A stretch of DNA of 64,000 nt from Escherichia coli (lineage in GTDB: Bacteria; Pseudomonadota; Gammaproteobacteria; Enterobacterales; Enterobacteriaceae). This document shows, in pieces, positions 13,695-13,866 of this stretch. Within the stretch, counting starts at the first letter, position 1, and the number at the start of each line of letters is the position of its first letter. The notes below the pieces were generated by a model that was not told the origin of the DNA, made no database searches, and worked only from the letters and a program-made list of their open reading frames with translations. Location of the stretch: the NCBI RefSeq assembly GCF_003334815.1, contig NZ_QOWO01000023.1; one strand, given 5' to 3'. The position numbers and the translations under genes were made by a program.

Positions 13695-13720
13695 AAAAAA
13701 AGCGCGACATCATGCCGCGC
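13695..13720 (-). terminator. rho-independent terminator of narK
   Basis: minus-strand hairpin gcgcg...cgcgc followed by T7. Confidence 0.7.
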
Positions 13721-13866
13721 AAAGGATAATCAAATATTTTACTCTATATAATTCGGTTTACAGGAAGGCGGCAAGTGAATGAATCCCAGGAGCTTACTAA
13801 AGTAAGTGACTGGGGTGAATGAACGCAGCCGCAGCACATGTAACCCGAAGTATGACGAGTAACGGT

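Follow-up and report, generated by a model that had tools for sequence, protein, structure and literature searches.

The 3′ end of narK in Escherichia coli as the probable locus of the small RNA NarS, with a polymorphic ERIC element inside it

The 3′ end of narK in the E. coli DNA examined here is, with a probability of roughly 90 %, the E. coli NarS locus, at which RNase E would process the narK mRNA into a fragment that is stabilised by Hfq and silences nirC. The window, that is, the whole stretch of DNA analysed, comprises 64,000 nucleotides of contig NZ_QOWO01000023.1, and coordinates refer to it unless stated otherwise. NarS is an already annotated and published small RNA and thus not new. 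The RNase E cleavage, the Hfq binding and the repression of nirC that we ascribe to the locus are carried over from experiments in Salmonella and from cited K-12 interactome data.

The identification starts from a comparison with E. coli K-12 MG1655, to which positions 13660–13900 (minus strand) are base-for-base identical. RefSeq NC_000913.3 annotates an ncRNA gene narS there (b4813, ‘putative small regulatory RNA NarS’; 1279337..1279520). Moving these coordinates over the 100 % identical alignment places the NarS major form of 184 nt at 13695..13878 on the minus strand. The same K-12 coordinates as those of narS b4813 are listed under the name NarS-S in PMC8175672, together with a longer, presumed precursor NarS-L of 235 nt (K-12 1,279,286 to 1,279,520; PMC8175672), which the alignment moves to 13695..13929 (−). 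The E. coli gene is still ‘putative’ in RefSeq, and the 5′ ends given for E. coli NarS in the literature appear to have been taken over by homology. A sequence-only reading of the window had proposed a NarS-type small RNA derived from the narK 3′ UTR at 13695–13866, and both the identity to K-12 narS b4813 and the pairing of its seed with nirC (see below) support that proposal. The proposed 3′ coordinate matches the annotated one exactly; the proposed 5′ start does not, since the annotated small RNA begins 12 nt further upstream, at 13878, within the narK CDS. So placed, the RNA has the orientation of narK, occupies the 3′ end of that gene and stops at its intrinsic terminator. When 13300–14100 was searched against Rfam 15 at a permissive threshold (E up to 10), no NarS match was found. 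All hits in this interval scored below the gathering score and the best ones were due to chance or related to the ERIC element described below; hits to RyhB, GadY and GcvB (E above 0.2) were dismissed because they reflect the terminator only.

Wang et al. 2020 (PMC7038943) characterised NarS in Salmonella; in Salmonella enterica it is also known as STnc2040. The major Salmonella form is 63 nt long, is excised by RNase E from narK mRNA at UCAUUC at the end of the CDS, and matures stepwise from a longer precursor (PMC7038943). It lacks a separate promoter; the narK promoter makes its expression dependent on FNR and NarL (PMC7038943). Hfq binds and stabilises it via the poly-U tail, which Hfq was shown to protect, and its seed (nt 21–33) pairs with the ribosome-binding site of nirC, resulting in repression of the nitrite importer NirC; a U26U27 seed mutant was used in that work (PMC7038943). 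For E. coli K-12, the same paper reports NarS-nirC chimeras obtained by RIL-seq and enrichment of NarS with Hfq, and states that K-12 NarS is longer than the Salmonella form owing to an insertion. It speaks of a ‘170-nt’ insertion in E. coli and of an E. coli RNA about 230 nt long (PMC7038943); the latter figure corresponds to NarS-L (235 nt) and not to the annotated 184-nt form. The mechanistic experiments on NarS were all performed with the 63-nt Salmonella form, and we found no experiment in the searched literature that addressed the long E. coli NarS directly or compared long and short forms.

The parental gene is narK (13867..15264, minus strand), an ORF of 465 aa. Its product matches the NCBIfam model TIGR00886 (NarK family; nitrate/nitrite MFS transporter) with 394.8 bits at a cut-off of 311.7, and RefSeq names the gene narK in every matched E. 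coli genome. The stop codon, which the sequence-only reading had put at 13867, is indeed TAA at 13869–13867 (−). The divergent gene narX lies upstream. The next gene downstream is narG, encoding the alpha subunit of nitrate reductase A (9608..13351, minus strand; 1247 aa in the ORF list and named by RefSeq), and the narK terminator sets its 343-bp regulatory region apart from narK. Within the E. coli genome set, 13–14 of the hits obtained with the narK 3′ end and the NarS module fall in plasmid-classed records; this region is thus present on a few plasmids, or on misassigned replicons.

Three further RNA loci were noted elsewhere in the window. At 5655–6505 (+), three tandem tRNA-Tyr(GTA) plus RtT units follow each other with a 294-bp period. 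The MG1655 annotation has two tRNA-Tyr genes (tyrT and tyrV) with rttR/tpr, so the window is not MG1655 itself and carries an extra tyrT repeat unit, which presumably arose by unequal recombination. At 22757–23892 (−) there are three tandem matches to the rdlD antitoxin RNA family, spaced by 535 bp and scoring 91–92 bits, which we read as the repeat cluster of the ldr/rdl type I toxin-antitoxin system. The Rfam small RNA family C0299 is matched over its full length (111.9 bits) at 62508–62586 (−).

The RNA ends at an intrinsic terminator (13695..13720, minus strand) that is supported by a terminator scan, by folding and by conservation. Its hairpin, GCGCGGCATGATGTCGCGC at 13720..13702, consists of the arms GCGCGGCA-UGA-UGUCGCGC with eight pairs, six of them G-C, and a loop of 3 nt, and is followed by seven T residues (U7 in the RNA; 13701–13695). 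The predicted fold has −13 kcal/mol (z=−2.75), and 2 of 200 shuffled sequences folded as well. In the surrounding 3 kb we counted five terminator-like matches compared with 4.0±2.2 in shuffled sequences; this count is not above chance, and the narK terminator is the strongest of the five. Other Escherichia species and S. enterica subsp. arizonae have retained both the hairpin and the T-run, with the stem in relatives differing at only one or two positions. Within E. coli, the 46 nt comprising seed, hairpin and U-tract have at least 99 % identity in 5406 of the 5417 matching records, ERIC-bearing or ERIC-free. The strong minus-strand terminator postulated at 13695..13720 is thereby borne out, as is the postulated distance of about 170 nt from the narK stop codon. 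The 3′ UTR as a whole, terminator included, runs for 172 nt from the stop codon to the last U of the tract; the spacer between stop codon and terminator stem measures 146 nt.

Directly upstream of the terminator lies the seed AUUUGAUUAUCCUUU (13721..13735, minus strand), which is predicted to be single-stranded and which we delimited by complementarity, duplex energy and unpaired probability. It is a perfect 15-nt complement of AAAGGAUAAUCAAAU of K-12 nirC. The K-12 nirC leader contains UUAAAGGAUAAUCAAAUG, and the complementarity extends from the Shine-Dalgarno sequence as far as the AU of the start codon AUG. The predicted duplex has −23.9 kcal/mol compared with −9.8±2.5 kcal/mol for shuffled targets, the best of which reached −18.9 kcal/mol. 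The nirC site was present in 5414 genomes, with at least 99 % identity in 4656 records. The seed sequence UUUGAUUAUCCUU is shared with Salmonella NarS and K-12 narS b4813 and matches positions 21–33 of Salmonella NarS-S, as is the predicted nirC site; also shared are the location at the narK 3′ end, the architecture of the terminator and the CAUUC motif that ends the CDS. Counted from the annotated 5′ end, the UU of GAUUAU occupies positions 26–27 in short alleles. This agrees with the U26U27 mutant of Salmonella and supports the homology of the 5′ ends to within a couple of nucleotides.

What sets the RNA apart from Salmonella NarS is its length, 184 nt instead of 63 nt, and this difference is due to the insertion of an ERIC element. 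The whole 301-nt UTR query was found in 2456 of 5417 matching E. coli genomes; in the others it was split into two matches whose spacing is 123 nt shorter. In one ERIC-free genome that we aligned, a clean gap covers 13859–13737, and the entire downstream sequence is identical, with the seed and terminator among it. The net insertion relative to ERIC-free E. coli is therefore 123 nt (184 nt versus 61 nt), compared with the ‘170-nt’ of PMC7038943. We place the element, a miniature inverted-repeat element of the ERIC/IRU type of about 125 bp, at 13738..13862, on the basis of filled and empty alleles, paralogous copies, primer matches and the hairpin; these boundaries carry an uncertainty of about ±3 nt, and the gap in the alignment spans 13737–13859. 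The insertion sits 4–5 nt past the narK stop codon and accounts for the 3′ UTR of about 170 nt; the ancestral UTR measured about 49 nt.

The assignment to ERIC follows from the core of the insertion, which matches the ERIC-PCR primers. Using the primer sequences that are standard in the ERIC-PCR literature, we found ERIC2 on the plus strand with 19 of 19 positions matching and ERIC1R on the minus strand with 18 of 19 and a 1-nt gap. The repeat is dispersed and occurs in all 5426 complete E. coli genomes with 2–16 copies each (median 10). A copy at least 99 % identical to the query, namely the one at narK, was present in 2457 records, and elsewhere the best match was another copy with less than 90 % identity. 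ERIC thus occupies narK in 2456–2457 of the 5426 genomes (about 45 %), leaving about 55 % without it. We aligned three paralogous copies, from the preT-yeiS, chpB-ppa and rtcB-yafP spacers, in which the repeat unit is about 125–127 bp long.

According to a review (PMC2229807), ERIC elements are 127 bp long, have 7-bp terminal repeats and TA ends, are co-transcribed and form a hairpin RNA. The narK copy resembles this family (ERIC/IRU/RU-1) in its length of about 125 bp, its terminal inverted repeats with TA-type ends and its ERIC1R/ERIC2 core, and likewise in its intergenic position, its co-transcription with the upstream gene, its long imperfect hairpin and the existence of filled and empty sites. 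It differs in its location, since it sits within a functional small RNA gene and not merely between genes. A second difference is that its ends are slightly degenerate: TTACTC...GAGTAA has one change on each side relative to the TATACTC...GAGTATA of the paralogues. Folded in the transcribed sense, the element forms a hairpin of −39 kcal/mol (z=−4.5), and in the opposite sense one of −51.8 kcal/mol (z=−7.1). As a further difference from the three other copies, five compensatory double substitutions keep the hairpin paired. Across the four copies 97.8 % of cells are paired, and covariation as high as that observed arose in only 1 of 500 shuffles; with four sequences, and with the structure derived from the narK copy, this covariation is suggestive only.

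PMC7038943 neither names the insertion as ERIC nor mentions its polymorphism, and a literature search linking ERIC with narK returned nothing relevant. Two sub-threshold Rfam hits at 13737–13875 (+) were to V_AS5, a Vibrio antisense RNA (30.9 bits at a gathering score of 96; E=1.8×10−4), and to Ysr49, a Yersinia small RNA. Both coincide with the ERIC element, and we rejected them as evidence of an antisense RNA gene, reading them as ERIC-like resemblance. That they cover exactly ERIC suggests that both Rfam families resemble ERIC-like repeats.

To place the insertion in time, relatives were collected by scanning a genome collection for the exact seed followed by a gap of 15–30 nt and T6. The scan returned 74 loci. 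Seven are enterobacterial narK loci, belonging to E. albertii, E. whittamii, two further Escherichia lineages, two E. coli-labelled species representatives and S. enterica subsp. arizonae; as an exact-match scan it missed the main S. enterica representative and other genera named in PMC7038943 and hence is no measure of how widely NarS occurs. All seven narK loci are short and ERIC-free, with the seed 8–10 nt past the stop codon and a NarS of about 61 nt, from which we conclude that the empty site is ancestral and that the insertion arose within E. coli. Sixty-six loci were unrelated, mostly from A+T-rich lineages, and were treated as chance matches. In Xenorhabdus griffiniae (locus L047, about 2300–2384) the same 15-nt seed follows immediately on a terminator-like hairpin that lies downstream of a gene with a SatP/YaaH-type transporter-like C-terminus; this match is probably also due to chance.

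With the inserted element, the 184-nt RNA is predicted to fold into separate modules: a 16-nt 5′ tail, the long imperfect ERIC hairpin, an 18-nt unpaired stretch with the seed, and the terminator. Minimum free energy and centroid folds coincide (−52 kcal/mol; z=−4.6), and the unpaired probability along the seed is 0.46–0.99. As the modelled fold leaves the seed unpaired, nothing in it suggests that ERIC masks the seed. A free seed agrees with the NarS-nirC chimeras and the Hfq enrichment reported for K-12, which carries the ERIC allele.

The 5′ end of the RNA rests on homology. The sequence-only reading had considered the processing site not visible; it can in fact be placed by homology with the Salmonella site, at GGCAU/UCU (about 13878) within the narK CDS. 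The homologue of the Salmonella UCAUUC is GGCAUUCU at 13876..13883 (−), which encodes the last narK codons Arg-His-Ser and is kept in all relatives examined (the Escherichia loci and S. enterica subsp. arizonae). That E. coli NarS would be cleaved at GGCAUUCU is an extrapolation from Salmonella. The RNase E motif RN/WUU (the slash marking the cut) has a match, GC/AUU, at 13881/13880 and another at 13929/13928, near both 5′ ends given in the literature; the literature E. coli 5′ ends sit 2 nt off the best match. More matches lie within the ERIC element and at 13736/13735, so that the main RNA in ERIC-bearing strains could be shorter than 184 nt.

This leads to the strongest alternative, which we nevertheless regard as unlikely: the functional small RNA might be a fragment of about 40–50 nt, released when the 184-nt RNA, then only a precursor, is cut a second time in the ERIC hairpin or downstream of it. 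Matches to RN/WUU at the appropriate places, GA/AUU at 13753/13752 and AU/AUU at 13736/13735, are consistent with such a cut, as are the stepwise maturation of Salmonella NarS (PMC7038943) and the link between Yersinia ERIC RNA and RNase E cleavage (PMC2229807). The motif is very loose, however, and so poor in information that 215 nt contain seven matches. Annotation and literature give only the 184-nt and 235-nt forms, and a cut at 13736/13735 would put the seed at the extreme 5′ end without any upstream sequence.

A second alternative, to which we give still less weight, is that the small RNA function has been lost or crippled in ERIC-bearing E. coli, for example because the large hairpin alters processing, stability or Hfq loading. 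The region would then be a plain long 3′ UTR with a selfish ERIC and a terminator that insulates narK from the narG promoter. The insertion separates the seed from the inherited RNase E site, which would fit such a loss, as would the reported ability of ERIC transcripts to alter the stability of flanking mRNA via an RNase E site (PMC2229807) and the fact that the literature searched contains no direct experiment on the long E. coli form. These points are outweighed, in our view, by the essentially invariant seed and terminator of ERIC-bearing and ERIC-free alleles alike, by the unpaired state of the seed in the predicted fold, and by the Hfq enrichment and the RIL-seq chimeras with nirC in the ERIC-bearing K-12 (PMC7038943).

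That NarS is instead a primary transcript from a promoter of its own, in the narK 3′ end or in ERIC, is very improbable: Salmonella dRNA-seq first suggested a triphosphorylated 5′ end and inserted repeats can create promoters, but promoter-deletion and plasmid experiments exclude an internal promoter in Salmonella (PMC7038943), and the sole promoter-like match nearby, at 13852–13880, is on the opposite (+) strand. Our consensus scan of 13930 to 13695 on the minus strand, which covered sigma-70 sites only and is weak evidence, found no sigma-70-like promoter and hence no candidate for an ERIC-created NarS promoter.

We therefore retain the reading of the locus as NarS processed from narK mRNA, with the following mechanism proposed. 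Under anaerobic conditions with nitrate, narK would be transcribed up to the intrinsic terminator at 13720–13695, and the mRNA would be cleaved by RNase E within the last codons of the gene, near GGCAU/UCU (about 13878). The released 3′ fragment would be stabilised by Hfq through the U-tail of the terminator. Its free seed (13735–13721) would then pair with nirC in the nirBDC-cysG mRNA, over the Shine-Dalgarno sequence and the start codon, and block translation of nirC, so that the nitrite importer would be off while NarK imports nitrate and exports nitrite. Here and in K-12, the 125-bp ERIC element lies between the putative processing site and the seed, which would make the RNA 184 nt long rather than about 61 nt. 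In its outline the system would resemble CpxQ, SdhX, SroC, MalH and GlnZ, in which likewise an intrinsic terminator ends the mRNA, RNase E cleaves, and the terminator is closely preceded by the seed (PMC9438474). It differs from them in its parental gene and target, NarS acting on a single cistron, nirC, in nirBDC-cysG.

Whether the ERIC polymorphism alters NarS production or activity is a separate matter. Such an effect is conceivable, since the insertion triples the length of the RNA and adds a large hairpin and possible extra RNase E sites before the seed; we consider it doubtful, though somewhat less so than any of the alternatives above. ERIC transcripts are reported to alter the stability of flanking mRNA by means of an RNase E site in an orientation-dependent manner (review PMC2229807), so that an effect on the yield or half-life of NarS is possible.

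NarS is a textbook case of cross-regulation between mRNAs, in which the mRNA of a nitrate transporter yields a small RNA that silences a nitrite importer, and our results leave this picture unchanged. They add that the insertion in E. coli NarS is an ERIC element of 123 nt net, that it is polymorphic at roughly 45/55, and that it is absent in the related species sampled. Should the element matter, E. coli lineages would differ in how strongly they shut off NirC-mediated nitrite import during nitrate respiration. Alleles with and without ERIC form natural pairs, in which a mobile repeat within a small RNA gene may be neutral or may tune regulation.
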